A stretch of 64,000 nucleotides of DNA, taken from Chloroflexota bacterium (lineage in GTDB: Bacteria > Chloroflexota > UBA11872 > VXNJ01). The notes beneath the pieces are model-generated. The model ran no database searches, had not been told where the DNA came from, and was given only the letters and a program-made list of their open reading frames with translations. The position numbers and the translations under genes are program-made. How positions within the stretch are numbered: position 1 is the stretch's first letter; the number at the start of each line of letters is the position of its first letter. The stretch is taken from positions 879,614 to 943,613 of the forward strand of contig OZ253578.1 in NCBI GenBank assembly GCA_965263025.1, read 5' to 3'. Shown piece after piece: positions 651 through 51,632 of the stretch.

Positions 651-658
651 AGGCAATC

Positions 659-907
659 ATGGAAAAGGGACAGGCAGAAAAACTTCCACCCTTAGAAATC
701 AGCGCTAGTTTCTCAGCAGGCGCAGGTGGCATGAGTGCGAATGTAGAAGTCCACCCCAACAACAGACGCAAAGTTAGGGATTCGCTTGTTGGGCTAGCGA
801 GTTGGTCGCTTAAGCGTGCTGCGAGGTACGCTGTTAAGGAAATGATTGAAAGAGCTTTTGACAGCCTTCACCTCTTCACCCTTGGTCGCAAGCTTAAATC
901 CCCTTAG
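659..907 (+). CDS. small hypothetical ORF (82 aa)
   Basis: ORF-track entry 8 nt after the previous small ORF. It is convergent with the transposase 3' end and overlaps it slightly. No motif recognised. Confidence 0.2.
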   Translation: MEKGQAEKLPPLEISASFSAGAGGMSANVEVHPNNRRKVRDSLVGLASWSLKRAARYAVKEMIERAFDSLHLFTLGRKLKSP

Positions 908-1868: not shown

Positions 1869-2130
1869 CTCTCTACCCTCCAAATCTATATCTGATTATA
1901 CCTGAGTCGGATAGAAAAGTATATAATTCCCTCCGTTTATTTTACCGATGTACGCATTGACGCGATGAAGGCGCCAGCCCGCCGGCGATTCGCCCATTTC
2001 TCGCGGATATCGAGACGTCGCCCACGGTCATTTTGGTTTCTTTGTCGCGATTTTTGCAATATCTTGTTCAATGTATTATTGGCAATGGTTTTCTGCGAGC
2101 AAGCAGTTTAGCGGAGGGAATACGGAATAT

Positions 2131-3570
2131 ATGACTAGCAGCGTTTCGAGGCGTCGACTCCTTAAGATCGGCGCCGCCGCCGGTCTCGGCGCCGCCGCTT
2201 TAGCCATTGCCGGCTGCGGCGAGACTCAGATCGTCGAGGTCGTCAAGGAAGTGCCGATCGTCCAGGAGAAAGTCGTCGAGAGGGTCGTAACCAGAGAGGT
2301 CGAAGTCCAGAAGGTAGTCGTCCAGGAGAAGGTCGTTACAGTCGAGGCCATGCAGCCAAAGAAAGCCGCCGTGGCGCTCAAGTTCAACACCTGGTGGGGC
2401 ACCGTCGAGGAGTACGCCTCAGAGGTCGGCGAGCCGTTCATCGAGCGGAACCCGCATGTATCGATCGACTGGCAGGTCACCCCCTGGGGCGAATACTGGC
2501 AGAAGATGCAAACGCAGGCCGTCTCAAACCAGCTGCCAGACTTCTTTGGCCAGAGCGTCGCGATCAACTGGGACTGGGCCAACAAGGGTCTCGTCTTCAA
2601 TATGGGTCCGGTGATCAAGCGCGACATCGACGAATCCGAGCACTACACCGACATCTGGCAGCAGGGCAGATACCCGGTCAAGGGGCATCCGGACCAGTAC
2701 ATGATGCCCATGGAGACCGTGGTATCGCTTTTGTATTTCAACGTCGATCTGTTCGACGACGCCGGGGTCGACTATCCCCAGCAGAACTGGACGTTCAGGG
2801 ACTGGGAAGAGGCCGGAGCCCAGCTGACCAAGGTGGAGGACGGCAAGACCACCCAGTTTGGCCTGTGGGGCCAGAATTCAAACGCGTTCCTCGATGCGTT
2901 CATCAATTCGAACGACGGGGTTGTCCTGAGTCCCGATTTCAAGACCTGCGAGCTGGATGGGCCGCTGTCTGTCGAAATGATCGCCAGATGCGTGAGCTGG
3001 ATCGAGCAGGGAATCGGGCCCACGGCTGCCCAGGCGGCGGACGTCGGCGGCGGAGCCCAGCTCTTTACGACCGGGCGACTCGGGATGGACATCACCGGTA
3101 GCTGGCAAGTCGACGCGTATCTCAAATCCACCGATCTGAACTTTGACCTCATGATGGTTCCGATGGGGCCGAAAAAGAGAGTCATCTACGGTGGACCGGA
3201 TAGCTGGGCCATTTCGGCCGGCTCGCCTCACTTCGAGGATGCCTGGGAAGTTGTCAAGTTCGCCATAGGCGACGAGCGTTCGTACAACAACTTCCCGCTC
3301 GGCAGAATTGCGAGCAACATAGCCATCTCGACGAGCGAAGACTTCCAGAAGAAGGGCCGCGTTCCCGGCTACAAGTACCTGTTCGATTCCGTGCAGTACA
3401 TGAAGGGCGCGGACTTCGGTCCTTCCTGGGTTGAGTGGCGTGCAGCCTTCTCGAACGAACTCGCGCCCGCGTTCCTGGGTGAGAAGAACGCCCAGGACGC
3501 CGCGACCGCGGCAACGGAGAAAATCCAGGTCATTCTCGACAAGGTTCCCTGGCCCGCGGCAATAGAGTAG
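2131..3570 (+). CDS. sugar ABC transporter substrate-binding lipoprotein (family 1 SBP) with a Tat signal
   Basis: SRRRLLK twin-arginine motif and IAGC lipobox, then a V/E/K-rich tether (VVEVVKEVPIVQEKVVERVV...), then an SBP_bac_1-like body. ATG 2131 has GGAGGG upstream; the ORF track starts earlier at 2071. Confidence 0.85.
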   Translation: MTSSVSRRRLLKIGAAAGLGAAALAIAGCGETQIVEVVKEVPIVQEKVVERVVTREVEVQKVVVQEKVVTVEAMQPKKAAVALKFNTWWGTVEEYASEVGEPFIERNPHVSIDWQVTPWGEYWQKMQTQAVSNQLPDFFGQSVAINWDWANKGLVFNMGPVIKRDIDESEHYTDIWQQGRYPVKGHPDQYMMPMETVVSLLYFNVDLFDDAGVDYPQQNWTFRDWEEAGAQLTKVEDGKTTQFGLWGQNSNAFLDAFINSNDGVVLSPDFKTCELDGPLSVEMIARCVSWIEQGIGPTAAQAADVGGGAQLFTTGRLGMDITGSWQVDAYLKSTDLNFDLMMVPMGPKKRVIYGGPDSWAISAGSPHFEDAWEVVKFAIGDERSYNNFPLGRIASNIAISTSEDFQKKGRVPGYKYLFDSVQYMKGADFGPSWVEWRAAFSNELAPAFLGEKNAQDAATAATEKIQVILDKVPWPAAIE

Positions 3571-3653
3571 AGGTTAATTACCGTTGGCGGTTGGGCGGGT
3601 CTGGCGAGTTTCTCGTCGAGGCCCGCCCGCTGACGGCAGCGTTTATTTGAGCC

Positions 3654-4586
3654 TTGGCACTATCTGAAACTTCCCTCGCCCGGTCCCTGGCAAGACTCGG
3701 GCCGCGGCGCGGCGGCGGCCTCCACCAATGGTGGCAGGCCATGCCCTTTCTATTTCTTACTCTGGTGGGCATGGTCCTGTTTACTCATGGAGCCGTCCTG
3801 GCCGCGTTCTTCATAAGCCTCACGCGCTGGGACGCGCTAACCCCATGGGAATGGATCGGAGTATCCAACTACAAAGATCTCTTTCTCCAGGACGACCTCT
3901 TCACCCGTTCAATGGTCCAGACCGGCTACTACACCCTCGTCTCCGTGCCGCTTGGAATCGTAATCTCGCTTCTGGCCGCCGTGCTGGTGAACCAGAAGCT
4001 GAAGTTCATGACGTTCTATCGAACGGTGTTTTTCTTGCCCGGCATTACGTCAATCGTCGCGGTGGCCATGGTCTGGCTGTGGCTGTACAACCCCGATTTC
4101 GGAGTCATCAACTGGCTGCTCGGAAAGGTCGGAGTCGACGGACCAGCCTGGCTGGGCAGCACTAAGTGGGCGATGCCGGCAGTGATAATTTTCGGGATCT
4201 GGCGAGGCCTGGGTTACAACATGGTGATTCTGCTCGCCGGCCTGCAAGGCATACCAGAGGTGTATTACGAAGCCGCCGAGGTTGACGGCGCGAGCCGGTT
4301 CAGGCGCTTCTGGCACATCACCCTGCCGCTGCTTTCGCCTACGACCTTCTTTGTGCTGATCATCTCTCTGATCGGTTCGTTTCAAGTATTCGAGCAGACC
4401 TACGTGCTTACCCAGGGCGGCCCCGCCTACGCCACGATGACCATCGCCTACTACATCTTTCTACAGGCGTTCCAGTGGTTCCACATGGGCATAGCGTCGG
4501 CGCTCTCGTTTGTGCTCTTCCTGGCGGTCATGGTCGTCACGGTTATTCAATTCGCGCTGCAGCGGAAATGGGTGCATTACGAATGA
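3654..4586 (+). CDS. carbohydrate ABC transporter permease (MalF/UgpA-like)
   Basis: Multi-TM protein with the EAA loop EAAEVDGASRFRRFWHITLPLL. It sits in an operon with the SBP. The TTG start is uncertain. Confidence 0.85.
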   Translation: MALSETSLARSLARLGPRRGGGLHQWWQAMPFLFLTLVGMVLFTHGAVLAAFFISLTRWDALTPWEWIGVSNYKDLFLQDDLFTRSMVQTGYYTLVSVPLGIVISLLAAVLVNQKLKFMTFYRTVFFLPGITSIVAVAMVWLWLYNPDFGVINWLLGKVGVDGPAWLGSTKWAMPAVIIFGIWRGLGYNMVILLAGLQGIPEVYYEAAEVDGASRFRRFWHITLPLLSPTTFFVLIISLIGSFQVFEQTYVLTQGGPAYATMTIAYYIFLQAFQWFHMGIASALSFVLFLAVMVVTVIQFALQRKWVHYE

Positions 4587-4621
4587 CCGCCCGCCGATTC
4601 ACGCGCCGCCGGAGCTGTTAG

Positions 4622-5512
4622 ATGGCCGAAGCCGTAGTCAGCAGAGATCCCGACATCGTCGTACGGCACCATACGGCCTGGTTTGGCGTCGTTCGAATCT
4701 TGCGTGTCATCTCGTCATACTTCTCGCTTACGGCGCTGGGCGCCTTGATGGCCATGCCGTTTCTCTGGATGATCGTCAGTTCGTTCAAGCACGAAGGCGA
4801 CATATTCACATTCCCGCCTGTATGGATTCCCGATCCCTTCATTTGGACAAACTTCCGGGACGTAGTGAACTCGATGCCGTTCGTGCTCATGTCCTGGAAT
4901 ACGCTCTACGTTGCGATCCTCAATGTGATCGGCGCCGTGCTCGTGTGCGGACTGGCGGCTTTTGCGTTCGCACGAATGCAGTTCCCCGGTCGTGATGCCG
5001 TGTTCGTCGTACTGCTTGCCTCGATGATGGTGCCCGCTCAGGTGACCATGATCCCGGTATTCCTGGTAATGCAGAAACTGGGCTGGCTGGACACTCACTT
5101 TCCGCTCTGGGTGCCGGGTTTCACCGGCGGCGCATTCGGCACGTTCCTGCTCCGGCAGTTTTTCCTGACGCTCCCATCAGAGCTTAACGATGCGGCCCGC
5201 ATCGATGGCGCGGGAAACTGGACCATCTTCTGGCGAATCTTTCTGCCGCTGTCCAAGCCCGCGCTTGCGACGCTGTCGATATTTGTATTCCTCTACCGCT
5301 GGAACGACCTGCTGCACCCCATCATTTACCTGAACACGCCTGAGAAGATGACCCTGCCGGTCGGGTTGGCGTACTTCCGCGGCCAATATCGGACCGAGTG
5401 GGCGCTGCTGATGGCCGGCGCGCTGATGAGCGTGATACCGGTGCTCGTGCTATACGCGTCGTTCCAGAGGTATTTCGTCCGAGGCGTGGTGCTGAGCGGA
5501 ATTAAGGGCTAG
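4622..5512 (+). CDS. carbohydrate ABC transporter permease (MalG/UgpE-like)
   Basis: EAA-type loop NDAARIDGAGNWTIFWRIFLPLSKP and a C-terminal QRYFVRGVVLSGIKG typical of CUT1 permeases. Confidence 0.85.
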   Translation: MAEAVVSRDPDIVVRHHTAWFGVVRILRVISSYFSLTALGALMAMPFLWMIVSSFKHEGDIFTFPPVWIPDPFIWTNFRDVVNSMPFVLMSWNTLYVAILNVIGAVLVCGLAAFAFARMQFPGRDAVFVVLLASMMVPAQVTMIPVFLVMQKLGWLDTHFPLWVPGFTGGAFGTFLLRQFFLTLPSELNDAARIDGAGNWTIFWRIFLPLSKPALATLSIFVFLYRWNDLLHPIIYLNTPEKMTLPVGLAYFRGQYRTEWALLMAGALMSVIPVLVLYASFQRYFVRGVVLSGIKG

Positions 5513-5655
5513 AGCTGCGCCCGGGATGGGATCGTGCGGCCGGCAACGGCGGCGAATCCTGGTGTCGGCAAGAGCCGCGGCCCGCCTTTAGGTCGGCACT
5601 CGGGTAATCGAGCAAGCGTACTGACCGCGACAACCGCCGCAACGGGAGGCCGTCG

Positions 5656-7404
5656 ATGAGAGGTATCCAACCTTTAGTCATCTCCAGATTCGATGCGCAG
5701 CACCCGCATTCCAGATACCTGATCGAGATACTGGCGGCCGAAGGATTCAACTCCGTCCGGATAATGGCGCCCGAGCAGGTGCGGGAGATGCCCCGGCCCG
5801 ACGAGTCGGGCTGCGTCGTGGTCGCGCAAGTGCCGTTGGGCCGCGATCTCCGCGACGATCTGCTCACCTACATCCGGTCGGGCGGCGGAGCCGTACTGAT
5901 GCGGCCCGAAGCCGAGCTCGCACTCGCGCTCGGATTGCAGCCTCGCGGGTCCCACGCCGGCGGGTACATATGGCCCGTCGCCGAACACCCGCTTTGCCCC
6001 GCCATGCTGCCGTCCCACATGCAGTTTCATGGAGGCGCCGAGTTCTATGAAGCGTCGGGCGCGAATCCTATCGCGCTCTTCGGCAGCAAGGAGGAGGCGG
6101 GGGCCTCGCCAGCGATAGCGACCGGGACGTTCGGTCGGGGGCGGTTCGCGGTGTTCGCCTACGATCTGGCCGCCTCGACAGTCATCTTTCATCAGGGACG
6201 CCCCGAGCAGAGCAGCACCGGACCAGCGTGGCCCGGAAACCCCTCGAGCTTTTACACGCCCGCCGACATGTTCACGGGACTGCTCGATTTCGACCTGAGG
6301 CGCGTTCCGCAGGCTGACTTTCAGCAGCGAATGTTCTCGCGGGCCGTGGAGTGGGCGCACGAAGCCGCGGGGCCATTGCCGCGCCTGTGGTATTACCCTC
6401 ACGCCGCGCGGGCGTTGCAGTTCATCAACGGCGACGGCGACTCCATGCGCCACGACGAGCTGCTGGTGATGATCGATCTCATGGAAAAGTACGATGCGCC
6501 TTACGCCGCCTACCTGATGATGGACGACCACCCCAAGGTGGCTCCCGCGGAGGTTGCCGACTGGATGGGGCGCGGGCACAGCTTTGGGCAGCACGTTTGG
6601 GCAGGCCCCAGGCCATCGCCCGACGAGCTTGACGAGCGCATAACCTGGGAAACGCATCAGTTTAGAAACAGATACGGCTTTACGCCGCTGACGATCCGCC
6701 ATCACTGCGTAATCTGGACGGGATGGGTCGACACCGCCAGGTCCCTCGAACGCAACGGCGTCCGCCTGGACCTGAACTACAGAGCGGCGCACGATTATCG
6801 AGACGGCTACCTGACGGGCAGCGGCCTCCCGATGCGATTCATGGATGAAGACGGGGCCTTTATCGACGTTTACGAGCAGGAGACGCTCACCTGCGACGAC
6901 TTCATTCTCATTCACAAGAGCGCACATCCGGTCTCGACGGTTGACGAAGCGGTTGACGTTAGCAGGGGATATCTGAAAGACGCGGTCGAATCGGGTCATA
7001 CCGTTGTTCATCAATACTTCCATCCCGTCTACGCCCGGACGGACTGGGACAGGCCTTATACGCCGCCCTGGCTGGAAGGCACTCTCCAGGCAGCCAGGGA
7101 GTTCGGCGCGCCCGCGATCGGAGCCGATGACTGGGTCCACTTCAACGACAGTCGCCGCGACACGGTTATCGATCAAGTGCGGTGGGACGAAGACTCGTCC
7201 TCATTGACATTCCAGGTTGCCACGCCCGAACGAATCGACGGCCTTACGCTGTCGGTTCCCACGTCGCACGGCGGCCTGCGCGCGTCGAGAGTGCAAATCG
7301 ACGGCCAGGAGCGCGATCTGCACGTTGAGAATATCCAGGGCAAGGACTACGTTTTCGTGATCGCGTCCGAAGGCGCCGACCGCATACGGGTAAGCTACGC
7401 GTAG
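5656..7404 (+). CDS. hypothetical protein, possibly carbohydrate-active (an N-terminal GATase1-like module plus an uncharacterised core)
   Basis: 582-aa ORF with GGGAGG upstream of its ATG, directly downstream of the sugar ABC genes. No catalytic motif recognised with certainty. Confidence 0.5.
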   Translation: MRGIQPLVISRFDAQHPHSRYLIEILAAEGFNSVRIMAPEQVREMPRPDESGCVVVAQVPLGRDLRDDLLTYIRSGGGAVLMRPEAELALALGLQPRGSHAGGYIWPVAEHPLCPAMLPSHMQFHGGAEFYEASGANPIALFGSKEEAGASPAIATGTFGRGRFAVFAYDLAASTVIFHQGRPEQSSTGPAWPGNPSSFYTPADMFTGLLDFDLRRVPQADFQQRMFSRAVEWAHEAAGPLPRLWYYPHAARALQFINGDGDSMRHDELLVMIDLMEKYDAPYAAYLMMDDHPKVAPAEVADWMGRGHSFGQHVWAGPRPSPDELDERITWETHQFRNRYGFTPLTIRHHCVIWTGWVDTARSLERNGVRLDLNYRAAHDYRDGYLTGSGLPMRFMDEDGAFIDVYEQETLTCDDFILIHKSAHPVSTVDEAVDVSRGYLKDAVESGHTVVHQYFHPVYARTDWDRPYTPPWLEGTLQAAREFGAPAIGADDWVHFNDSRRDTVIDQVRWDEDSSSLTFQVATPERIDGLTLSVPTSHGGLRASRVQIDGQERDLHVENIQGKDYVFVIASEGADRIRVSYA

Positions 7405-40656: not shown

Positions 40657-41439
40657 ATGGCCGAAACCAGCACTCCTCCAGACTACCTCTCGATGCCGCT
40701 CGAAGAGCGCGACGACATCATCGTCTGCGAGAACGTCCACAAGTGGTTCGGCGAATTCTGCGCCGTGCGCGACGTAACCATGAGCGTCAAGCGGGGCGAA
40801 GTCCTCGTCATCTTCGGCCCGTCGGGATCGGGCAAGTCCACCTTCATCCGCATGATCAACCGCCTCGAAGAACATCAATCGGGCACGATCGTGGTTGACG
40901 ACATCGAAATGACCAACGACGTCCGCAACCTGGACGCCATACGCCGGGAAGTCGGCATGGTGTTTCAGCAGTTCAATCTCTTCCCGCACATGACCGCGAT
41001 CAACAACATCATGCTGGCGCCGCAGCGTGTGCGGCACGTCCCGAGGCGCGACGCCGAAACGATCGCGATGCAACTGCTCGAACGCGTCGGGATTCCGGAG
41101 CAGGCGCACAAATACCCCGCCGAGCTATCGGGCGGTCAGCAGCAGCGGGTAGCCATCGCCCGCGCGCTCGCCATGCAGCCGGAAATCATGCTGTTCGACG
41201 AACCCACCTCGGCGCTCGATCCGGAGATGATTAAGGAAGTGCTGGACGCAATGCGCGAGCTGGCCGCCACGGGCATGACCATGCTGTGCGTAACCCACGA
41301 GATGGGCTTCGCCCGCGAGGTCGCCGACCGCATGGCCTTCTTCGACGAAGGCATGCTCGTCGAACTGGGCACTCCAGACCAGATCTTCAACAACCCCCAG
41401 GAAGACCGCACCCGCACATTCCTGGAGCAGATTCTCTAG
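40657..41439 (+). CDS. aapP: amino-acid ABC transporter ATP-binding protein
   Basis: Walker [10 protein letters not shown], signature [15 protein letters not shown], Walker [12 protein letters not shown]. Confidence 0.9.
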
Positions 41440-41457
41440 CCCCGGCTTCGTGCAGCC

Positions 41458-41874: not shown

Positions 41875-42178
41875 ATACGACCGTCCCGTCGCGAAGCGCC
41901 GCGTTCAGCACGGTCCCCACCACTTGACCTCGACTTGCGATCTCATTGGGCGTGGTTACCACGATGTCCTTGCTCACCGGAAGATCTCCCAGCAACCGCC
42001 GTATCTCGACCGCAACTCGACGCTTGTCGGACACGTTTCCCATTACGACAAGCAGGTCCACGTCGCTCCACTTGCTTGCGGTACCGCGCGCCTGGGAACC
42101 AAAAAGCACGACGCGAGACGGTTGAAACCTTCCAACTATCCGGTCCACCATGGTCGAAATAATCGCTTCAGAAGTCAT
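41861..42178 (-). CDS. nucleotidyltransferase (MNT) antitoxin-type protein, copy A
   Basis: LFGSQARGTASKWSDVDLLVV (GS...DxD). A 14-nt overlap joins it to the downstream HEPN gene. Confidence 0.85.
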   Translation of the reverse strand: MTSEAIISTMVDRIVGRFQPSRVVLFGSQARGTASKWSDVDLLVVMGNVSDKRRVAVEIRRLLGDLPVSKDIVVTTPNEIASRGQVVGTVLNAALRDGTVVYERP

Positions 42179-42265
42179 ATCGATCCTGAGCCGTCCCCAA
42201 AACCTTGTACCACCCGCTATGTTAGTCCGACGAGTGCGGGGATACGTTCCACAGACAGCATGGCC
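41887..42265. repeat. direct repeat copy A (about 379 bp): MNT gene body, its upstream region and the edge of an ABC-ATPase 3' fragment
   Basis: Manual alignment to 44175..44552 shows only 2 differences in the first ~215 nt and roughly 27 differences overall. Confidence 0.85.
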
Positions 42266-42770
42266 CTCTTCGACGAAGGAATGCTCGTCGAGCTAGGCAC
42301 CCCCGAGATCTTCAACACGGCGCCGCTCGTCAGGTTGTCCGAACGGAGAGTACGCCAATAGACATCTTCATGGTGCAGCTTGCTCTCGTCTTCTTGCCGG
42401 GCATCGTTTGGGCGAGGTCCCGTTGTTATACTTCGCTCGCGATCGGCACAACATTCATATCGAGTTTCCATACTGCGGGAAGAATCGTAGCGAGGAGGAG
42501 GAAGCGAAAAATGGCACGAGAGCGTGATTCCGCTCGAAATGCGCGCGATTCTATTTCGTTTCGAGATGTTCGCCTTGAAAAGGGCGGACAGAACCCAACC
42601 CAATCCCAAATCACCGAACGTCCGCCAGCACCCGAGCCGATAGCCACTCTGCAGTCAGTTCAATCCCCTCGGCCTGCTTCGAATCAAGCGCCCTCTACTG
42701 ACGACGCCTCACCCGACTAAGCGCCGGCAGCGAAGACCGCACCCGCACGTTCCTCGAGCAGATTCTCTAG
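42260..42770 (+). pseudogene. remnant of an aapP-like ATPase 3' end, split by an insertion of ~415 bp
   Basis: 42260..42316 encodes [19 protein letters not shown] (intact gene: [20 protein letters not shown]). 42732..42770 repeats the last 12 codons plus stop ([12 protein letters not shown]) of aapP almost exactly. Confidence 0.75.
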
Positions 42771-42991
42771 CCGCAGCAATCGACCGCGCGGCTGGTCGCC
42801 CGTTGCGCCAGGGAACTATCGCGGCGTGAAAGACCCGTCGCCCACGGATCCGTTACCCTGCTTGAGACGAGGGGCGCCGATAAGATGACCAGCTCCCGCT
42901 GCTTCTGAAGCTTGCTCTCGCCATTCGACGCTGGCACAATCGCCCACTCGTAGCGAGCAGGGTTCCACACGCAGAGACAAGGATGACGTAA

Positions 42992-44071
42992 ATGAAGCTG
43001 CGACCGGCCAAAGCGTCGTTAATTCTGGCGCTGTGCGCGCTCATCCTGGCGGCGTGTGCAAGCGGCGGCGAGCGTCACGACGCCGGCGGCGGCGAGTCAG
43101 CGGCCAGGGCCGCGCAAGCGTCGACCAGCCGGATCGAAACCGTCCGGGAACGCGGGCGGTTGATTTGCGCCAGCCGTAAGGACGTGGCGGGCTTTGGATC
43201 GCTCGACGAAAACGGCCGCAACGTCGGATTCGATATCGACCTTTGCCGCGCCGTAGCGGCCGCCGTGCTCGGCGACGCCGAAGCGATCGAGATCGAATAC
43301 ATCACCGCTGCCCAACACGGCCCCACCATCCAGTCCGGCAAAGTTGACCTGCTGGTCCGAACTCTCACCCGCACAACCACCCGCGACGCGCAGTGGGGGC
43401 GCTTCTCCTACACCATGTTCTACGATGGTCAGGGCTTCCTGGCGCCCAAAGAACTGGGCGTGGAATCGGCCTACGACCTGGGCGGCGCGACAGTATGCGT
43501 AATCGGCGGCACCACCACCGAGCGCAATCTGGCCGACTTCTTCCGGCAAAACGATATGGAATATACGCCGTCCGTGCTAGAAGACACGCACGTGGCGCTG
43601 GACGCCTACAAGTCAGGGCGATGCGAGGCTTTCACGAACGACCGCTCGCAACTGGCGGCGCTCCGAACTACCCTGCCTGATCCGGGCGCCCACGTCATCC
43701 TGCCCGAGACAATCTCGGAAGAACCGCTAACGCCGATCGTGCCGCACGGCGACGAACTGTGGGGCGCGGTGGTGAACACGGTAATGGCGGGGCTGATTTA
43801 CGCCGAGGCCTACGGCGTCGCCAGCGGCAACCTCGCCGAGATGCTCAACAGCAACGACACCAGAATCAAGCGGATGCTCGGCGTCGAGGGCAGCTTTGGC
43901 CAGGACGACCTGAAACTGTCCGTAACCTTCATGCAAGACGTGATCGCGAGCGTGGGCAACTACGGCGAGATATATGACCGCAACATCGGCAAAGACGGCC
44001 TGAGCCTGCCCCGCGGCCGTAACGCGCTTTGGTTGGACGGCGGCCAGCTCTGCGCCGCCCCGCTGCGCTGA
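42992..44071 (+). CDS. amino-acid ABC substrate-binding protein; an orphan paralog of aapJ
   Basis: Lipobox LAAC. It is collinear with the 37010..38113 product over the whole mature domain (roughly 70 percent identical by eye). No permease or ATPase genes follow. Confidence 0.85.
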   Translation: MKLRPAKASLILALCALILAACASGGERHDAGGGESAARAAQASTSRIETVRERGRLICASRKDVAGFGSLDENGRNVGFDIDLCRAVAAAVLGDAEAIEIEYITAAQHGPTIQSGKVDLLVRTLTRTTTRDAQWGRFSYTMFYDGQGFLAPKELGVESAYDLGGATVCVIGGTTTERNLADFFRQNDMEYTPSVLEDTHVALDAYKSGRCEAFTNDRSQLAALRTTLPDPGAHVILPETISEEPLTPIVPHGDELWGAVVNTVMAGLIYAEAYGVASGNLAEMLNSNDTRIKRMLGVEGSFGQDDLKLSVTFMQDVIASVGNYGEIYDRNIGKDGLSLPRGRNALWLDGGQLCAAPLR

Positions 44072-44142
44072 ATCAGCCGGCGACTCAGAGCCGTAACCAG
44101 CGCCTCCACAACCAGCACCGCTACAACCAACGCCCCCTACCG

Positions 44143-44466
44143 TCATTCCGGCGTCCGCCGGAATCCAGTCCTCTCGTCGCGAAGCGCCGCGTTCAGCACG
44201 GTCCCCACCACTTGACCTCGACTTGCGATCTCATCGGGCGTGGTTACCACGATGTCCTTGCTCGCCGGAAGATCTCCCAGCAACCGCCGTATCTCGACCG
44301 CAACTCGACGCTTGTCGGACACGTTTCCCATTACGACAAGCAGGTCCACGTCGCTCCACTTGCTTGCGGTACCCCGCACCTGAGAACCGAAAAGCACGAC
44401 GCGAGACGGTTGAAACCGTCCGACTATCCGGTCCACCATCGTCGAAATAATCGCTTCAGAAACCAT
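44143..44466 (-). CDS. nucleotidyltransferase (MNT) protein, copy B; orphan with a replaced C-terminus
   Basis: Nearly identical to copy A through ...VLNAALRD, then diverges (ERTGFRRTPE). No HEPN gene is downstream. Confidence 0.7.
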   Translation of the reverse strand: MVSEAIISTMVDRIVGRFQPSRVVLFGSQVRGTASKWSDVDLLVVMGNVSDKRRVAVEIRRLLGDLPASKDIVVTTPDEIASRGQVVGTVLNAALRDERTGFRRTPE

Positions 44467-44552
44467 CGCGATCCCGAGCCGTCCCCAATCCTGATACCAC
44501 CCATTATGTTAGTCCGACGAGTGCGGAAATAGGTTCCTCAGGCAGCATGGCC
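44175..44552. repeat. direct repeat copy B (about 378 bp)
   Basis: See copy A. The left boundary abuts the hairpin ATTCCGGC-GTCC-GCCGGAAT (44145..44164). Confidence 0.85.
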
Positions 44553-44597
44553 ACTAGCGCCAGCAGCCCCTGATGCGGGCAGATCGTAAATTTCAAC

Positions 44598-45098
44598 TCA
44601 ATCAGCCAACCGATTAAGACGAATAGCCAATTCACGCTTTGAGACGGGACATCTCGGATCGTCCTGCATCGCTTTAAGCGTCGTGACGACCTGGGTTGCC
44701 GGCAAGATTCCGGCGGTATCCATTTTGTCGATGCCCCACAGGGTACCGTGATGAGGGATGCCTTCTGACCGAGCGAAGCTACGCATGACCCTGTCGTCCG
44801 TGAGGAGCTCCCATCCCTGCTGCTTAGCCAAGGCAAGAGCGAATGAATCTACCAAACTCAGGGCCTGCCGCCTCGACTGAATGGAGATTGCCATTGTTAC
44901 CCCTTCCGTATCCAGAGCTTCAACCTTGAGGCCAAAGCTGAGCAAGTCCTGTCGGCTGTACACACCCAAGTCAATTAGTTCCTCGTCGAACAGCAAGTCT
45001 GGAACCGCGAATTGGAACCTTAACTCGAACATCTTGTCCAGCAGTTCGCGCTTGGCGAACTCGATCAATACGGAACTGTCGCTGACGAGGACCTTCAC
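44598..45098 (-). CDS. PIN-domain protein (COG2405/DUF3368-like)
   Basis: MKVLVSDSSVLIEFAK (Asp7), SLVDSFALALAK, LLTDD acidic residues. It lies 13 nt downstream of the XRE-M78 gene on the same strand. Confidence 0.7.
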   Translation of the reverse strand: MKVLVSDSSVLIEFAKRELLDKMFELRFQFAVPDLLFDEELIDLGVYSRQDLLSFGLKVEALDTEGVTMAISIQSRRQALSLVDSFALALAKQQGWELLTDDRVMRSFARSEGIPHHGTLWGIDKMDTAGILPATQVVTTLKAMQDDPRCPVSKRELAIRLNRLAD

Positions 45099-45111
45099 GT
45101 CTATGCGATCC

Positions 45112-46158
45112 TCATTTACCCCCCATAATGCGCTCGATTTCGCTGATGGGCAGTCTGAGCAACTCGGCCGCCTTGGACATTGAAATCACTCTCTCTTCCA
45201 ACGCTCTCAAACAGAGACGGCGAAAGCGCCTGGGAGCCTCCGTTCGCTTAAGGCCGCGTGGCTCGTCCTTTCTCCAACCTCGTCCGATGCCGCGGAAAAT
45301 TCCCACCATCGTCGCTTTGGTGATAATTCCCAGGTCACGCATTCGCACTACCAGAGCTGCGGCGCTGACGCCGAATATGTGCTTGATCTCGAAGAGTTCG
45401 CCGAGACCGAAACTGACACGCCGGTGACCTACTTCACGCATAAGCTCTTCTCGGGGTACCAGGAAAGCACCGGCAAACCTTTGGCATGCTTTCTCGGTAG
45501 ACACTCCCGTCGGAATGTCCAGGACCATGTGGCCTAGTTCGTGAGCGATGGTCAACCGCTGACGCTCTATGGATTTCGTGGAGGAGCAGACCACTACCGG
45601 CACGTCGTCTCCATCTACACGATGGACGTGGCAGGTGAGTCCGTCCACCGACTCAGGTAGGCCCACTTTGAAGACCTTGATCCCACGTTCCTCAAGCAGT
45701 TCAGTCATATTCGAAATCGGATCGCCGCCGAGATTCCAGGCCTTGCGAACTGACATGGCGATTTGCTCGGCGTCTTCTATGGCGTCGATGCTATAAGGCG
45801 CGCCGTCGGGTCTATCCTGCCTGCCGCTATCGATGCCCAGCAGTTCCTCCAATTGGAGATAGCGATCCATGATATCGAGCACATCCGCCTCGACCGCCGC
45901 CCGCTCCCTAACCTTGGTTGAAGCCAGCTTTCTGAACTCAACAGACTCCAAAGAGACCTTCGAAGGGCTAAAGAGGTAGCTCATGGAAACGTCGAGAGCC
46001 TTTGCCAAAGCAAGCGCTACGGTTGAGCTAGGCATCATCTCGCCGCGCTCATATTTGCCGATAGCCTGGGCTGTAACGATGCCCCCAATGCGTGAGGACA
46101 ACGCCCGGAGCGATAGGCCACTGCGTTTTCTGGCGAGCTTGAGACGTTCGCTGAACAT
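45112..46158 (-). CDS. XRE-family HTH fused to an ImmA/IrrE (M78, COG2856) zinc metallopeptidase
   Basis: N-terminal LKLARKRSGLSLRALSSRIGGIVTAQAIGKYERGEMMP (HTH_3) and HELGHMVL (HEXXH). ATG 46158 has AAGGAGG upstream. Confidence 0.85.
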   Translation of the reverse strand: MFSERLKLARKRSGLSLRALSSRIGGIVTAQAIGKYERGEMMPSSTVALALAKALDVSMSYLFSPSKVSLESVEFRKLASTKVRERAAVEADVLDIMDRYLQLEELLGIDSGRQDRPDGAPYSIDAIEDAEQIAMSVRKAWNLGGDPISNMTELLEERGIKVFKVGLPESVDGLTCHVHRVDGDDVPVVVCSSTKSIERQRLTIAHELGHMVLDIPTGVSTEKACQRFAGAFLVPREELMREVGHRRVSFGLGELFEIKHIFGVSAAALVVRMRDLGIITKATMVGIFRGIGRGWRKDEPRGLKRTEAPRRFRRLCLRALEERVISMSKAAELLRLPISEIERIMGGK

Positions 46159-46172
46159 ACGCCCCTCCTTTC

Positions 46173-46211
46173 GGTTTACATTTCGTAGTATAATATACGT
46201 GTTTGTAAACC
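46173..46211. promoter_or_regulatory. putative operator: an inverted repeat GGTTTACA-N23-TGTAAACC enclosing a TATAAT box, in the divergent intergenic region
   Basis: The 8-bp arms at 46173..46180 and 46204..46211 are perfect. TATAAT is at 46189..46194. The site lies between the XRE-M78 start (46158) and the small ORF start (46235). Confidence 0.45.
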
Positions 46212-46234
46212 ACACTCAGGCACAGAGGTGTCCC

Positions 46235-46515
46235 GTGTCCCAGGGCAAGTTCGAGTTCAAGGTGAATGGTGATGAGTTCGCTGCTAAGAAACCCAACCCG
46301 ACCGCGTCGGAGATTCTAGAGATTGCCAAGAGGGCGTGCGCGTGCACGGAGTGCTGTGGATAATCGACAAGCTTCATGCGGTAGGCATTTGCGGCGATGA
46401 CCGGCTTATCGCCGCCCTGCAAGTCTGGCGCGACGCCCCGTCCGTATTCCTGCCCAAACGCGAAATCAGCCGCGGGATCGCGTTGCTGACATCGAATGAA
46501 GGAGCGATCCGATGA
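46235..46515 (+). CDS. two overlapping short ORFs (46235..46363 and 46336..46515), possibly one frameshifted beta-grasp (multiubiquitin-like) gene
   Basis: GTG 46235 has GAGG 6 nt upstream and gives MSQGKFEFKVNGDEFAAKKPNPTASEILEIAKRACACTECCG. The -1 frame from 46336 gives VRVHGVLWIIDKLHAVGICGDDRLIAALQVWRDAPSVFLPKREISRG... and ends in an ATGA overlap with the next gene. Confidence 0.4.
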
Positions 46516-47768
46516 TCGCCGTGCTCTCCAAGCCTGCAGATCAGATTGGCGTAAGTGACCTCAATGAACTGATCGACTCCGAGGTCCCCGAAAGCGATCA
46601 GATCGAGTTCAAGGAAACCCTGTCGACCAAAGACGGGTCTCCAGACAGATGGATAACTCACAGGGATAGAATTGGCGAGAAAGCACGAAACCAGATACTC
46701 GAAGAAACCGTCGCGTTCGCGAACGCCTACGGCGGCGCGCTGCTCTTGGGTATCCGAGAATCCGAGAGCAGACCACCCGTCGCCGCCGAAATCAAGCCCA
46801 TCCCACGCTGCGCAGACCTCGCCGAGCGCCTGAAGCTGAAGTTCCGCGACTGCGTCGAACCGCAGATTCCCCTGATTGAGATATTTGCCGTGCCGACCGA
46901 CGGCGATTGCGGCGTTGTTGTTATTCGTACAAGCCGCTCACGGATGGCGCCCCACCGAGTAATACCGACCGGTAAATGCCCGATCCGGCGCTCTGACAGG
47001 TGCGAGGAGATGACCATGCGAGAAATCCAGGACCTCACGCTGAACCTCTCGCGGGGACTTGAGCGACTGGAGCGGCAGCTTGAGGCGCGCTCGGAGCTCT
47101 TCGAAAAGGAGTTCGACCGCCTGACTACACCTGATGATGCATGGGGCATCCGGGCGACGGCTGCGCCGGTAGGAGAAGATATCCGATTCGACCGCGTTTA
47201 CGGCGTGGCAGATCTATGCACACCTTGGCGCGAAGTTTCATTGATCTTGGAGAATGGGAGGGAAATTCCACTTGATTTTCCAAGCTTCCATCCAAATTGG
47301 CGACCAAGACTACGTGCTGCGCGGGGGGAAGATTCGAGCGGCTCCGACACCGTCGATCTCAACATCTACCGAGAAATCCACTGCGATGGGTTGATTGAAA
47401 TCGGTCTCGTCTACTGCGAGAGATTACGAAGTGGCATGCAAAGCGTCGTTAAGTTATTCCCTTCTTGGCCGGTAGCTGTGTACGCTAATCTGATCGTCTG
47501 GGCCAATGCTGTCAGACATCAAGCATCCTCTCCATCTTCGGAATATGCCATCGATATAGAAGTGAAAAATCAATCTGACTATGTATCAGTAAGAGGATAT
47601 GACCCCGGCGCCTGGGAAGAGGCGGTCCTCAAGCACTCCACGAAGTATCCCCAGTACTCATTGGGAGAACCGAGTGAGATTCCCAATCTCATCTCTCAGT
47701 TCGAACGCGACTTCTGGAATTCCATCGGTCTGGACGTAGAGCCAAGACAGTTCGTGGTGGAGCGTTAA
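46512..47768 (+). CDS. Schlafen/AlbA_2-domain protein with an uncharacterised ~230-aa C-terminal region
   Basis: ESDQIEFKETL...ILEETVAFANAYGGALLLGI...VVVIRTSRSRMAPHRV matches the AlbA_2 (divergent AAA/Schlafen core) pattern. GAAGGAG lies upstream of the ATG. Confidence 0.7.
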   Translation: MIAVLSKPADQIGVSDLNELIDSEVPESDQIEFKETLSTKDGSPDRWITHRDRIGEKARNQILEETVAFANAYGGALLLGIRESESRPPVAAEIKPIPRCADLAERLKLKFRDCVEPQIPLIEIFAVPTDGDCGVVVIRTSRSRMAPHRVIPTGKCPIRRSDRCEEMTMREIQDLTLNLSRGLERLERQLEARSELFEKEFDRLTTPDDAWGIRATAAPVGEDIRFDRVYGVADLCTPWREVSLILENGREIPLDFPSFHPNWRPRLRAARGEDSSGSDTVDLNIYREIHCDGLIEIGLVYCERLRSGMQSVVKLFPSWPVAVYANLIVWANAVRHQASSPSSEYAIDIEVKNQSDYVSVRGYDPGAWEEAVLKHSTKYPQYSLGEPSEIPNLISQFERDFWNSIGLDVEPRQFVVER

Positions 47769-47895
47769 CAGCAGTCTTACCGGTGTTTAACAGCTCACTG
47801 TCCGTAGCTTGAAACTCCATCAACCATACGAATTCTCGCAGGCACGCGGGCCAACGCAACGAACGTAATCGGACAAACGTCGACGCTAGGTCGGG

Positions 47896-50673
47896 TTACT
47901 TCAGATTCATCGCCAGCAACTCCCCCAGCGCATCCTCGTCCGAGATACCGGCCGGCCAGTTGTAGGCGGCTGCGACGGCGGAGTCGAGGGCGGCGTGGGC
48001 GTTGGCGAGCCATTGCGGGCGCTCGTTGTAGAGGTTGGTCAGCGTGCGAGTCTTCAGTTGCTTCGCTGCCGCCTCGCCGCGGGGGACCGGGCGCCTGGGG
48101 TAGTTGGGGGCGGGTTCGTCGATCCAGTCGACCCATTCGGGTGGGTTGAGCCAGCGGTTGCGGAGTTCGACGAGGCGGCGGGCTGCCTGGGCGATGGCGA
48201 TGGCGCGCGGGTCGCTGGCGTAGCTGGCGGCGGGGAGGTCGGGCGTCAGGCCTTCGGGGAATGGGAACGTCTGGAACGTGGTGGTGGGCGTGTAACGCGG
48301 ACGGTCCTCCAGGCTGGTGCCTAGTCGCAGCGACCATGCCTCGTGAAAGCGGCTGTGCAGGATGCCGAAGGTGGTGTCGTCGTCGCGGGCGATCACCACA
48401 AGTTGCTTGTCGGGGCAGATGCGCACGTCACACCACACGAACAGGCGGTGCTTGGCGACTTGCGGCGTGGCGATGTAGCGGGAGAAGCCAGCGAGCGCTT
48501 GCCACATGCGTTTTGGTGGCTCGAAATGGCGGTACCAGTACTTGCGGCGTGCCTCGCGCGGATTTTTCTGACGCATTGGATAGACGCGCGCCTGCACCCG
48601 GCGGAATGGCTCCTCGTACAGCGCCGCCTCGCCGGCTGATATCGTCCAACCGAAGTCCACGATCCACTTGCCTGCTGGTCGCTGGGTCACGTCCCTGCCA
48701 TTCGTCCACGGCTTCAGCACGTCCGCGTTGGTCCGGCCGTTCGGGTTCGCCGGCAGACGGAGCCACTCGCGCGCCAAATCTCCCGCGATGTCGAAGGGAC
48801 CACCTTTCGTGTCGCCCTTGAACACGACGCCAGCATTCGCAGGGAGCGTCTGGACACGGGTGAGATCGATGCCGTCGCTATCCCGCCGCGCCGTCAGATC
48901 GGCGTATATCTCTTCCACGTGGTGTCCATTGAGCCGCGTTTCTGATACGAACTGGTCATCAGTGTGTGCGAAGCAGACCAGCGACACTCGCACTGCTGCC
49001 ACCTCGTTGACCCACGGCTCATCGCTCCACGCCTCGAACAAACGCCGCGTTTCGGTCGCCGCCTGGAGCACCCGTCGGCTCGCCCCGCCCCGGATGGAAT
49101 TGGTCGCGACGAGTCCCGCCCGTGTCGCTCCTCGGGCTCCTATCTGCGTATGGGCCTTGGCGAACCAGTAGCTGACCAAGTCTGCGCCGCCCGGTACGCG
49201 CCCGCTGTAGGCCCTTCGGAGTCGAGACACATAGTCTTTACCGAGCTTCCAAATCTGAAGTCCGGAACCGAGAAACGGCGGGTTTCCTATAATGACATCC
49301 GCTTCCGGCCACGCCGGTTCGCCGCCGTCCTCCGTCAGAACCGCGTCGCGGCATTCGATGGTGTCGAGCGGCTTGAGGATGGGCTTGCGCGACTCGGAAA
49401 AGCCGTTACGCCGCATCCACTGGATTTCGCCGATCCACACCGAGACGCGGGCCAGCTCGGCGGCATAGGGGTTGATCTCGATTCCCTTGACGTTGGCGGG
49501 CCCGATCTCGGGGAAGGTCAGCGGCAGGCCCATCGCGTCCGCCTCAAGTTGCACGCGGTGTTCCAGGTCTTTGAGCGCGTGCAGCGCCAGATAAAGGAAA
49601 TTGCCCGAACCGCAGGCGGGATCGAGCACCGTGAAGCCGCGCAGCCGTTCCAGACAGGCCGCGATCTCGACTTTCGCCGCTTTCCACTCGGCCAGCCAGG
49701 GACGCACGATAACGGGCTCGACGATAAGCATTACCTTGTCGCGGTCGGTGTAGTGCGCGCCCAACTGCGCCCGCTTGCGGGGGTCGAGCCCGCGTTCGAA
49801 CAGCGTGCCCAGGATCGACGGGTCGATCTCCGACCAGTCGAGATCCGCCGTCGCGAGCACCGTTTCAATCTCCGCTTGCTCGAGGGACAGCGCCGAATCG
49901 TCGTCGAACAGCCCGCCGTCGAACCAGGCCACCTCCTCAAAGCCGACCCGGCCGCCCCTGGCCATCGCGCCGAACAGGTCACGGGCAAGATCGACGAATT
50001 CACCCGGCCGGCGCCGCGCTTGCTCCAGCATCCGCGTGAACATGCCGTCAGGCAGCAGACCAACGTCCTCGGCGAACATGCAGAACACGAGCCGGTTGAC
50101 GAAATGCGCCACGACCCGCGGATCGTGGCCTCGCTCCCGCAATCCCTGGGCAAGCGAGGCGAAGGCCGCCGCCGCCCGCTCGGTGAGCGCCTGCCGCGTT
50201 TCGCCGGGCCGCAGGCGCTCCGGGTCCGAGAGCGCCCACTTGAGCTTGTTACGCACTGCCGCGTCGGCGAGATCGTCCAGCCCAAACTCGTGGACCCGGC
50301 TGACGCTGTTGGTCCAGTGGGTGTAGATGCGGAACCGCAGCATGTCCGAGACGATCAGCAGCGGCGGGTTCTCCAGCGCCAGCGCATATTGTCTGAGCTG
50401 TGTGAACGCGGCGTCCAGGTTGGCGCGTTTGCCCTTGTACTCCCAGACAAAGTGATGCCGCTTCCAAACGTCGGCCCAGCCGTCGCCGCCGGTTTCCTTG
50501 CGCGCGCCGCGCTCGAAGCAGTAATGCTCGCCGGTCGGGTCGGCTTCGGCGGGGGTTGGCTCGTCCAGCAGCCGGCACAGGTCGATGAAGTGCTCCTGCG
50601 CCGCCGAGCGCTCCTTCAGCTCCGACGCGCGCCACTTGGCGATGAACCGGTATGGGGTCATATCGTCACCCAC
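47896..50673 (-). CDS. MmeI-family type IIL restriction-modification enzyme (fused endonuclease and N6-adenine methyltransferase)
   Basis: N-terminal WADVWKRHHFVWEYKGK (D...EXK), LVFCMFAEDVGLLP, LGAHYT, LDPACGSGNFLYLAL (SAM motif I), IIGNPPFLGS (motif IV), and a C-terminal FPFP...LTNLYN; 925 aa. The start may be ATG 50661. Confidence 0.85.
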   Translation of the reverse strand: MGDDMTPYRFIAKWRASELKERSAAQEHFIDLCRLLDEPTPAEADPTGEHYCFERGARKETGGDGWADVWKRHHFVWEYKGKRANLDAAFTQLRQYALALENPPLLIVSDMLRFRIYTHWTNSVSRVHEFGLDDLADAAVRNKLKWALSDPERLRPGETRQALTERAAAAFASLAQGLRERGHDPRVVAHFVNRLVFCMFAEDVGLLPDGMFTRMLEQARRRPGEFVDLARDLFGAMARGGRVGFEEVAWFDGGLFDDDSALSLEQAEIETVLATADLDWSEIDPSILGTLFERGLDPRKRAQLGAHYTDRDKVMLIVEPVIVRPWLAEWKAAKVEIAACLERLRGFTVLDPACGSGNFLYLALHALKDLEHRVQLEADAMGLPLTFPEIGPANVKGIEINPYAAELARVSVWIGEIQWMRRNGFSESRKPILKPLDTIECRDAVLTEDGGEPAWPEADVIIGNPPFLGSGLQIWKLGKDYVSRLRRAYSGRVPGGADLVSYWFAKAHTQIGARGATRAGLVATNSIRGGASRRVLQAATETRRLFEAWSDEPWVNEVAAVRVSLVCFAHTDDQFVSETRLNGHHVEEIYADLTARRDSDGIDLTRVQTLPANAGVVFKGDTKGGPFDIAGDLAREWLRLPANPNGRTNADVLKPWTNGRDVTQRPAGKWIVDFGWTISAGEAALYEEPFRRVQARVYPMRQKNPREARRKYWYRHFEPPKRMWQALAGFSRYIATPQVAKHRLFVWCDVRICPDKQLVVIARDDDTTFGILHSRFHEAWSLRLGTSLEDRPRYTPTTTFQTFPFPEGLTPDLPAASYASDPRAIAIAQAARRLVELRNRWLNPPEWVDWIDEPAPNYPRRPVPRGEAAAKQLKTRTLTNLYNERPQWLANAHAALDSAVAAAYNWPAGISDEDALGELLAMNLK

Positions 50674-50949
50674 GGAACCGGCCTTCTATCGGGAAAGTGC
50701 AAGATGTAACTAGCGATTGTTCAGCGTTTACAAACCGCGCCCCACACGAGCAAGATCGTCATACACGGTCTGGTGATTGTCCGACGCATTCGCGCACATG
50801 CGTGAGGACACATGGGTGCTGATCGTGTTCTTCTTGAACCTGGTTCGGCGTTTCCGCATCTCCTCAATCACGTCTTTCGGGCGAAAAGGGTCATGTCCAT
50901 TAGAAACTAGCGCTCTCGCGGGGACTATTAAGGAGGTTAGCCAGAGGAG

Positions 50950-51348
50950 CTAGGGGGGCGAATGAATGTACTTGCTGTTTAGCGTAAACGAGCCGCCTTG
51001 TAATGTGAGGATATAGTGCTCTAGAAAATCCATACCAAGTAATACGTCAAAGTTGTGAGGTTGGAACGGCAACTCGCAAACTTCGAACTTTCGGCTGGTT
51101 ATCCATTGTATGCCGACGTCTGCTGAAGTGAGGGGGACTCCGAGGTGGGTTCGGTATCGGCGCGTCGGGACAGGCTTGCCAGTCGCTGGAATAATATCGA
51201 CGTAGCCAAAGGACCGCAAGACGACCTCTTTCACGACTTTCGGAGAGATCATCGTTCGTTGTGACCCAGTATCCAGCAGGGCAATATAACTATGTTCGTC
51301 CTCAGGGTTCCCGACGATGACTTCTAGGAGTATTTGTCTATCTACGAC
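50950..51348 (-). CDS. retropepsin-like clan AA aspartic protease; the N-terminus including the catalytic DTG lies upstream of the first start codon (51252)
   Basis: The track ORF 50950..51252 contains LLGMDFLEHY. The same frame upstream reads VVDRQILLEVIVGNPEDEHSYIALLDTGSQRT with no ATG/GTG/TTG back to a TAA at 51442..51444. Confidence 0.65.
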   Translation of the reverse strand, partial: VVDRQILLEVIVGNPEDEHSYIALLDTGSQRTMISPKVVKEVVLRSFGYVDIIPATGKPVPTRRYRTHLGVPLTSADVGIQWITSRKFEVCELPFQPHNFDVLLGMDFLEHYILTLQGGSFTLNSKYIHSPP

Positions 51349-51365: not shown

Positions 51366-51632
51366 CTATTCTCTTATGCCTATCTTGGGAGGGTTGACAA
51401 ACATCGTGAAGAAACCGAGGTTGATTGGCTTCTCTCCGACATTAACGAGAGAGAAGTCCCCCAACCCAAATTTGTCGCATCCGATCTTGTAAGCGTCTTC
51501 ATCGTCGTTATAGACCTCCACGACGTTGCCATCGTGCATGAGGACTGTGCGACCCATATACCTCCTCTCCATTTGATCTTGGACTTTCTCATAAGCCGCT
51601 TGGTTTATATCAAGCTGACTCTCGACTGTCAT
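51366..51632 (-). CDS. small DUF5678-like protein (88 aa), upstream partner of the retropepsin-like gene
   Basis: GRTVLMHDGNVVEVYNDDEDAYKIGCDKFGLGDFSLVNVG resembles the small proteins commonly paired with prokaryotic retropepsin-like proteases. AT-rich DNA. Confidence 0.55.
   Translation of the reverse strand: MTVESQLDINQAAYEKVQDQMERRYMGRTVLMHDGNVVEVYNDDEDAYKIGCDKFGLGDFSLVNVGEKPINLGFFTMFVNPPKIGIRE

Follow-up and report, generated by a model that had tools for sequence, protein, structure and literature searches.

In the 64-kb window analysed here (the whole stretch of DNA, from a Chloroflexota bacterium that is probably sponge-associated or marine), the interval 44598-47768 encodes a regulator in which an XRE-type helix-turn-helix (HTH) domain is fused to an M78 metallopeptidase, a PIN-domain protein behind it and, divergently, an AlbA_2 protein of the prokaryotic Schlafen (pSlfn) family. 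Our results suggested that this interval is a junction, within a hypervariable hotspot of defence genes, where two immune modules meet that are independent of each other and mobile by horizontal transfer, and that the pSlfn gene was probably captured there as cargo of the regulator-PIN cassette; this is the explanation that we favour, with some reserve. The present layout of pSlfn and cassette is a local arrangement and no dedicated system. A first-pass annotation, made from the letters of the window, had proposed an undescribed dedicated defence module, and this proposal did not hold: each half is a member of a described kind, and the two showed no linkage in 76 loci. What is new is the Schlafen cargo, the sharply delimited cassette with an invariant operator and a putative nested outward promoter, and a C-terminal domain that pSlfn has in common with SIR2-type and ADP-ribosylglycohydrolase proteins. 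The coordinates of all features are collected in Table 1.

Two modules that occur apart

The contexts of the cassette were obtained from nine look-ups of homologues of the PIN protein (66-85% identical), which gave about 40 loci and lean heavily on a few sponge-associated metagenome projects. Wherever upstream sequence was present in these loci, an XRE-M78 gene of 347-351 aa preceded the PIN gene. When lineages with different cargo were compared by blastn, homology opened 0-4 nt beyond the outer arm of an inverted repeat in front of the regulator gene and ended at the PIN stop codon. Since the interlineage homology is bounded by these two points, the conserved unit consists of operator, regulator and PIN gene (module A). 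Divergent defence cargo lay beside the cassette in 9 of 10 contexts. Five of them were cyclic-oligonucleotide-based anti-phage signalling systems (CBASS), namely SMODS-E2-patatin, patatin-SMODS, QueC-SMODS-Cap17-like (in two flanking contexts) and patatin-SMODS-ThiF, and CBASS was the commonest cargo among the loci examined. The other contexts held ThsB_TIR, an operon of thymidylate-kinase/HMUDK_hel, ThyA-like and TIR genes, a 173-aa gene with a DUF4238 gene and, in the window, the AlbA_2 gene. The analogy to CapH/CapP-type switches drawn in the first-pass annotation fits this divergent arrangement with CBASS, TIR and other defence genes. On phages, the cassette gave one match among 2.9 million viral contigs.

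Co-occurrence of the AlbA_2 gene with the mini-ORFs (short open reading frames, ORFs, between the two modules), the regulator and the PIN gene was a test set beforehand. The 76 pSlfn genome loci, mostly from sponge or marine metagenome-assembled genomes of many phyla, were searched with phmmer down to E<1 with the filters off, and no homologue of XRE-M78, PIN or mini-ORF was detected in them; counted by pSlfn loci, 0 of 69 had the regulator, the PIN gene or the mini-ORF. The expected conserved linkage was therefore not borne out, and one sister locus (L077) has the AlbA_2 gene without any cassette. Three sister loci (L077, L079 and L080) have the same flanks as the window, with an ABC transporter and MNT on one side and Pribosyltran, Peptidase_S11 and HNH on the other. 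At this chromosomal site, L077 carries MNT-HEPN, pSlfn and MmeI without the cassette; in blastn, window 44172-44537 corresponds to L077 7549-7914 and window 46489-50675 to L077 7978-12225. In L079 the cassette has other cargo, and of MmeI a relic is left (94-aa C-terminal part, 3998-4282). L080 carries the cassette, ORF1 and a CBASS operon in the place of pSlfn, and its MmeI gene is split into two ORFs (1-2443). These loci show an apparently free assortment of the modules at the hotspot. The G+C content of the interval is 55%, against 60-67% in the flanks. Compared with L077 and a further locus, L078, the native upstream region of pSlfn was replaced and 23 nt of it were retained; because just these 23 nt remain, pSlfn was probably captured as regulated cargo.

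The same comparisons bear on the idea that XRE-M78, PIN, the mini-protein and the AlbA_2 protein are one dedicated, undescribed multi-gene system. The genes are adjacent in the window, with the operator between both gene sets, which agrees with that idea. However, the other components are absent from all 69 pSlfn loci, the sister loci hold either half alone, and one mini-ORF is a fragment of a PIN pseudogene, the second an orphan (see below), so that we regard a single system as very improbable.

Table 1. Features of the interval and its neighbour (positions in the window)
Feature	Position	Strand	Basis or remark
Segment extra to L077, holding the cassette and both relics	44538..46488		blastn
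Module A: operator, XRE-M78 and PIN, about 1.61 kb	44598..46211		pairwise blastn
PIN-DUF3368 protein (VapC-like), 166 aa, second cassette gene	44598..45098	-	Pfam PIN 2.5e-6
Fused XRE HTH and M78 (ImmA/IrrE-type) zinc peptidase, 348 aa	45112..46158	-	Pfam, PADLOC
Operator-like inverted repeat GGTTTACA (46173-46180)-N23-TGTAAACC (46204-46211)	46173..46211		outer edge 46211 is the cassette boundary
Putative -10 box TATAAT, centred between the arms, facing the AlbA_2 side	46189..46194	+	fixed 8 nt from outer arm
Mini-ORF1, 42 aa, GTG start after AGAGG, TAA stop	46235..46363	+	orphan ORF
3' relic of a PIN-DUF3368 gene	46300..46470	+	tblastn, PIN residues 102-158 only
Mini-ORF2, 59 aa, frame ending in ATGA	46336..46515	+	PIN relic into pSlfn leader
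Module B: pSlfn and MmeI unit, 4.2 kb	46489..50675		also in L078, in another genomic context
pSlfn, 418 aa: Slfn/AlbA_2 nuclease domain, long helix (aa 169-203), C-terminal domain of ~215 aa	46512..47768	+	Pfam, models
MmeI-family type IIG restriction-methyltransferase, 925 aa, convergent with pSlfn	47896..50673	-	Pfam, PADLOC

Regulator, PIN protein and operator

The start codon of the regulator is the ATG at 46158, with the ribosome-binding site AGGAGG 5 nt ahead of it. The first-pass call of an XRE HTH fused to an M78 peptidase with a HEXXH motif was correct, with Pfam matches to HTH_3 (1.7e-13) and Peptidase_M78 (5.5e-11) and the motif HELGH at aa 206-210 (nt 45529-45543). About 70 aa remain after the peptidase, where Pfam gave a weak HTH-like match (aa 310-345) and no GAF match. 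RmrA models of PADLOC matched the protein over its full length (aa 3-345) with E-values down to 3.6e-55, while capP (2.8e-14 on aa 130-277) and capH (8.3e-5 on aa 2-98) gave weaker matches; the NCBIfam spr1629 repressor/antitoxin family matched at 1.5e-26, which is under the family cutoff. The PIN gene follows after the 13-nt gap reported earlier. Its product was rightly called a PIN protein: besides the Pfam match (2.5e-6), the acidic residues D7, E40, D84 and D102 were all kept in 16 aligned homologues, and the homologues bear precomputed PIN and DUF3368 matches. In PADLOC, it matched the candidate family PDC-S70 (5.4e-7) and gave no match to the RmrT models, its only matches being to PDC-S70 models.

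The inverted repeat lies in the 76-bp gap 46159-46234, ahead of the first plus-strand ORF, and in the window it reads GTTTACA-N23-TGTAAAC. Over the whole window the pattern was found a single time, and 100 shuffles did not yield it. Among the loci collected, GTTTACA-N22-25-TGTAAAC was perfectly kept, once per locus, in all 29 with the region upstream of XRE-M78, and it was found in none of the 161 other loci; its distance to the XRE start was always 15-17 nt. The palindrome had been proposed as an operator, and the conservation of its arms, which goes far beyond what the window alone shows, marks it as operator-like.

Across lineages the spacer between the arms diverges, except for six nucleotides placed 8 nt from the outer arm. 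In the direction of the cargo, this hexamer reads TATAAT, TACAAT, TATCAT, TATTAT or GAATAT in lineages with divergent cargo, mostly with TGn before it, and together they form a putative extended -10 promoter that is directed away from the regulator. The lineage without divergent cargo (loci L187-L190) has intact arms and a degenerate hexamer (CATTAA). The operator of that lineage, at 2889-2925, with its degenerate outward -10 box (TGGCATTAA), is a natural control for the idea of an outward promoter. In the direction of the regulator, the outer arm offers a -35 element (TTTACA), and 18 nt on a weak-to-good -10 element ends in the inner arm. Between 46212 and 46511, no sigma-70-like promoter, judged by an E. 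coli-type consensus, and no plus-strand terminator was found, which agrees with transcription of pSlfn from the cassette. A search of 44000-48200 for structured RNA or riboswitches gave no Rfam match at E<=1.

The main rival explanation starts from the matches of the regulator. According to it, module A would be no more than a pair of the RosmerTA-like kind, be it type II toxin-antitoxin or defence, with PIN as toxin and XRE-M78 as autoregulating antitoxin; it would not influence pSlfn, which would lie beside it through defence-island clustering alone. The full-length RmrA match and the NCBIfam repressor/antitoxin match agree with this. NetFlax ties ImmA-type antitoxins to PIN-like toxins, and ImmA/RmrA antitoxin nodes pair with PIN-like domains (Ernits et al., 2023, PMC10440598). 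The lineage without divergent cargo and the independence of pSlfn from the cassette elsewhere point the same way. However, a plain toxin-antitoxin pair accounts poorly for the divergent orientation to defence cargo in 9 of 10 contexts, for the CBASS cargo in five of them, as with CapH/CapP, and for a cassette boundary just past the operator. Lineages with cargo retain the outward extended -10 box inside the operator, the cargo-less lineage has lost it, and the PIN protein matches no RmrT model. We therefore judged this explanation rather unlikely, though it deserves to be kept in mind.

The Schlafen protein and the short frames before it

The N-terminal Schlafen/AlbA_2 domain called in the first-pass annotation was confirmed by a match to SLFN_AlbA_2 (PF04326) at aa 27-168 (E 3.9e-12). 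The motif ESDQIEFK at aa 27-34 (E27-x4-E32-x-K34; nt 46590-46613) is an intact Ex4ExK, and E27, E32, F33 and K34 were invariant in an alignment of 26 pSlfn homologues (alignment A1). More than 800 full-length homologues were found. In the AlphaFold model (predicted local distance difference test, pLDDT, 84.5), AlbA_2/Schlafen structure matches were confined to the N-terminal 170 residues, for which Foldseek returned 3lmm, 2kyy, SLFN11, SLFN13 and SLFN14. Positions 16-85 of the family profile align with residues about 185-263 of SLFN13 and SLFN14, with weak E-values. The AlbA_2 protein is thus a pSlfn, a member of a single-gene defence family, and is predicted to be a tRNA-cleaving nuclease. 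Its neighbours are MmeI, NACHT, Mrr, AbiE and methylase genes, a defence neighbourhood.

The C-terminal half had been described as unassignable, and so it proved. The C-terminal 219 residues modelled alone gave a confident fold (pLDDT 90.6; predicted template-modelling score, pTM, 0.89). Foldseek found nothing significant in the PDB (best E 0.018, probability 0.13) and only low-probability matches in BFVD, including a few TBP-like proteins with a template-modelling (TM) score of about 0.25; phmmer against the PDB gave no match, and neither did Pfam. An exhaustive HMMER search with this domain collected 282 cluster representatives, mostly pSlfn fusions of 420-445 aa. Two large proteins end in the same domain; in one of them HEAT and SIR2_2 come before it, in the other ADP_ribosyl_GH (ADP-ribosylglycohydrolase) and DNA_processg_A. 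Apparent 'stand-alone' proteins of 255-275 aa are no real architecture; they come from pSlfn genes that are split or frameshifted, and begin at a methionine inside these genes. In the family alignments, the C-terminal half diverges faster than the nuclease half. The domain is probably a sensor, a role that fits because it recombines with different effector domains and diverges faster than the nuclease half. Homologues of this pSlfn clade (L001-L058) come almost all from sponge-associated or marine metagenome-assembled genomes, and their hosts belong to Chloroflexota, Latescibacterota, Alpha- and Gammaproteobacteria, Nitrospirales, Nitrospinota, Acidobacteriota, Poribacteria and Bacteroidota. 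Such a distribution implies that the clade was probably spread widely by horizontal transfer in the sponge and marine community.

Upstream of pSlfn, the first-pass annotation had seen one short beta-grasp-like ORF that ends in an ATGA overlap with the AlbA_2 gene. Here two overlapping ORFs in different frames had been merged, and neither is beta-grasp-like or coupled. For mini-ORF1, a beta-grasp or multiubiquitin identity was rejected, since Pfam and PADLOC gave no match and 5.8 billion protein clusters held, besides itself, a single relative, a 44-aa ORF of L080 at the equivalent place upstream of the CBASS operon. It is probably left over from earlier cargo, or else a leader. Mini-ORF2 aligns solely to the C-terminal third of the PIN family and matches the C-terminus of the neighbouring PIN protein in BLASTP (E 9e-9). 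The underlying stretch is a relic: tblastn aligned 57 aa of it to the neighbouring PIN at 37% identity (E 3e-10), and stop codons interrupt the frame further upstream. Both the ATGA and the preceding 23 nt are the leader and ribosome-binding site of the AlbA_2 gene itself, common to L077 and L078; because these two loci have the leader without any ORF there, the overlap is incidental, and translational coupling was rejected. Of the earlier proposal that the AlbA_2 protein and a coupled mini-protein form the regulated effector, one part therefore stands, as the putative outward promoter of the operator points at the AlbA_2 gene, whereas the mini-ORF is an uncoupled relic.

The MmeI-type neighbour and the hotspot

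The enzyme encoded convergently with pSlfn combines five MmeI Pfam domains (N-terminal, helicase-spacer, methyltransferase, TRD and C-terminal) in one polypeptide, all past the cutoff but MmeI_C (22.5 bits against 27), and matches REase_MTase_IIG of PADLOC at 1.4e-284. Among 56 loci with full-length pSlfn, a convergent MmeI orthologue (66-78% identity) lay directly downstream in 16, from Chloroflexota, Alphaproteobacteria, Nitrospirales and Bryobacterales, and it was the sole recurrent neighbour of pSlfn. This pairing across several phyla, and a segment (46489-50675) that L078 has in common in a different context, could mean that pSlfn and the MmeI-type enzyme are a functional two-gene unit, for example with pSlfn as a back-up that senses phage countermeasures to restriction, and that the cassette is incidental. 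However, the reverse scan of 80 related MmeI loci from JGI metagenomes, 49 of them with at least 1.5 kb of downstream flank, gave no pSlfn (0/80), so that MmeI as an obligate partner was rejected. MmeI is also missing from 40 of the 56 pSlfn loci, the two genes are convergent and hence form no operon, and known pSlfn proteins work as single genes. A functional unit of the two thus appears improbable to us, and from the loci compared the association looks like co-transfer rather than dependence.

Further observations concern the surroundings. The MmeI gene, intact in the window, is decayed in L079 and L080, which indicates ongoing gene decay in the hotspot. A segment of the MNT nucleotidyltransferase is duplicated in the window, at 41884-42265 and 44172-44552 (95% and 84% identity); the first copy retains the HEPN-partner region and the second is without it. 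Between the MNT copies, the 3' end of the ABC-ATPase gene is repeated in short pieces (41326-41446 versus 42254-42306 and 42732-42777). The pattern suggests that the ABC transporter operon was probably the site of repeated insertion or rearrangement at its 3' end. Upstream of MmeI, a patch of low G+C content (49-51%) that L077 does not have holds ORFs of 100 aa (50950-51252) and 88 aa (51366-51632), both on the minus strand, which may be another inserted two-gene module.

Other observations concern two of the cargo regions in other lineages. In L094-L099, the genes divergent from the cassette (~300-3572, minus strand) encode a thymidylate-kinase/HMUDK_hel fusion (565 aa), a thymidylate-synthase-like protein (353 aa), a 165-aa protein and ThsB_TIR; they may form an undescribed nucleotide-modifying or nucleotide-depleting defence operon. 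DUF6791+ThiF and BubE genes lie downstream of PIN in these loci. The cargo position of L079 holds a 173-aa protein (5304-5825, minus strand) and a DUF4238 protein (4316-5197, plus strand), neither with an NCBIfam family match.

Discussion

If the interval is the junction that we propose, its regulation could be pictured as follows. A dimer of the HTH domain would bind GTTTACA-N23-TGTAAAC and repress both its own promoter, whose -35 element TTTACA lies in the outer arm, and the nested outward extended -10 promoter. A damage or infection signal would activate the M78 domain, and the repressor would be cleaved, by analogy to CapH/CapP and ImmR/ImmA. Cleavage would induce the PIN gene and anything beyond the operator. 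In the window, the outward transcript would run ~300 nt across the two relics into pSlfn, whose C-terminal domain would sense a phage component and release tRNA cleavage.

Several observations weigh against this explanation. PADLOC ranks the regulator as RmrA, the antitoxin of RosmerTA, far above capP or capH, and the role of the PIN gene is left unexplained by the regulator model. The L187-190 lineage is without divergent cargo, and its upstream genes are co-directional with the regulator; from this lineage it follows that the cassette can stand alone, like a plain toxin-antitoxin pair. pSlfn, for its part, functions elsewhere without the XRE-M78 regulator. As for the promoters, the -10 box of the window has AG, not TG, upstream of it, the -10 element in the direction of the regulator (CGAAAT) is weak, and the ~300 nt of relic sequence between operator and pSlfn could hide an unrecognised promoter. 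All promoter calls were scored by an E. coli-type consensus, and the promoter rules of the host may differ. Finally, we infer every regulatory step from sequence.

The closest described relative of module A is CapH/CapP. In the work of Lau et al. (2022, bioRxiv 10.1101/2022.04.27.489752), capH and capP are described upstream of CBASS and further defence operons, on the opposite strand. In the same study, CapH and CapP were fused in 15 CBASS systems, and one example was published in which a CapH-CapP fusion and a vapC-like gene lie beside DISARM. The cassette resembles these in its XRE-type HTH repressor and M78 zinc peptidase, upstream of and opposite to defence genes, in the existence of fused forms, in the published example with a VapC-like PIN gene and in CBASS as the commonest cargo of the loci examined. 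However, CapP is laid out as peptidase, HTH and C-terminal GAF, whereas the regulator of the window is a single 348-aa polypeptide in which no GAF was detected. A PIN-DUF3368 gene always accompanies the regulator and is apparently co-transcribed with it, and in the window a Schlafen gene takes the cargo position. The likeness in the switch itself, namely DNA binding, activation by single-stranded DNA (ssDNA) and cleavage, is a predicted one, drawn by analogy.

The cassette can also be compared with RosmerTA (RmrT/RmrA; Millman et al., 2022; PMC10440598), as the full-length RmrA match and an HTH plus ImmA-type protease beside a putative toxin are common to both. It differs in that the partner in the window, a putative toxin, is a PIN-DUF3368 protein without RmrT match. 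In ImmR/ImmA of ICEBs1 and IrrE/DdrO of Deinococcus, an HTH repressor is likewise inactivated by an M78-family metallopeptidase after DNA damage; these are two separate proteins, however, with mobile-element or DNA-repair targets and no PIN partner.

In 2026, prokaryotic Schlafens were demonstrated to be anti-phage effectors that are encoded by single genes and carry a variety of fused sensor domains (Perez Taboada et al., PMC13056530). In that work, the pSlfn nucleases are defined by the catalytic motif Ex4(E/D)xK, and 17% of the Slfn fusions have unannotated partner domains. The protein of the window agrees with the described pSlfn in its N-terminal PF04326 nuclease with Ex4(E/D)xK, its fused variable C-terminal domain, its single gene and its location in a defence island. 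It differs in a C-terminal domain without Pfam, PDB or BFVD match, which may fall into the 'unannotated' or 'TBP-like' classes of that work, in a family found mainly in sponge and marine metagenome-assembled genomes, and in its recurrent convergent MmeI neighbour.

The cassette may have a more general role, which we put forward tentatively and hold to be possible at best. Operator, XRE-M78 and PIN could be a portable 1.6-kb 'plug-in' unit that, through an outward promoter clamped by its operator, places any defence gene recombined beside the outer arm under damage- or infection-responsive control, with PIN as an addiction or abortive-infection part. If this were true, the genes beyond the operator would be a catalogue of defence cargo, undescribed ones included. 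Among the undescribed cargo would then be this clade of pSlfn and its novel C-terminal sensor, the operon of thymidylate-kinase, ThyA-like and TIR genes, and the pair of the 173-aa and DUF4238 genes.

With this analysis a false lead was removed: the four genes do not make up a new system, and what had been taken for a 'coupled mini-protein' is a fragment of a pseudogene. The cassette is a tractable model for the movement of a CapH/CapP-type switch among CBASS, TIR, Schlafen and other immune genes, and its operator offers a practical genomic marker for new cargo. The C-terminal domain of pSlfn, with a confident fold and no structural relative, is a candidate new phage-sensing domain. The spread through many phyla among sponge and marine symbionts points to active exchange of immune genes.

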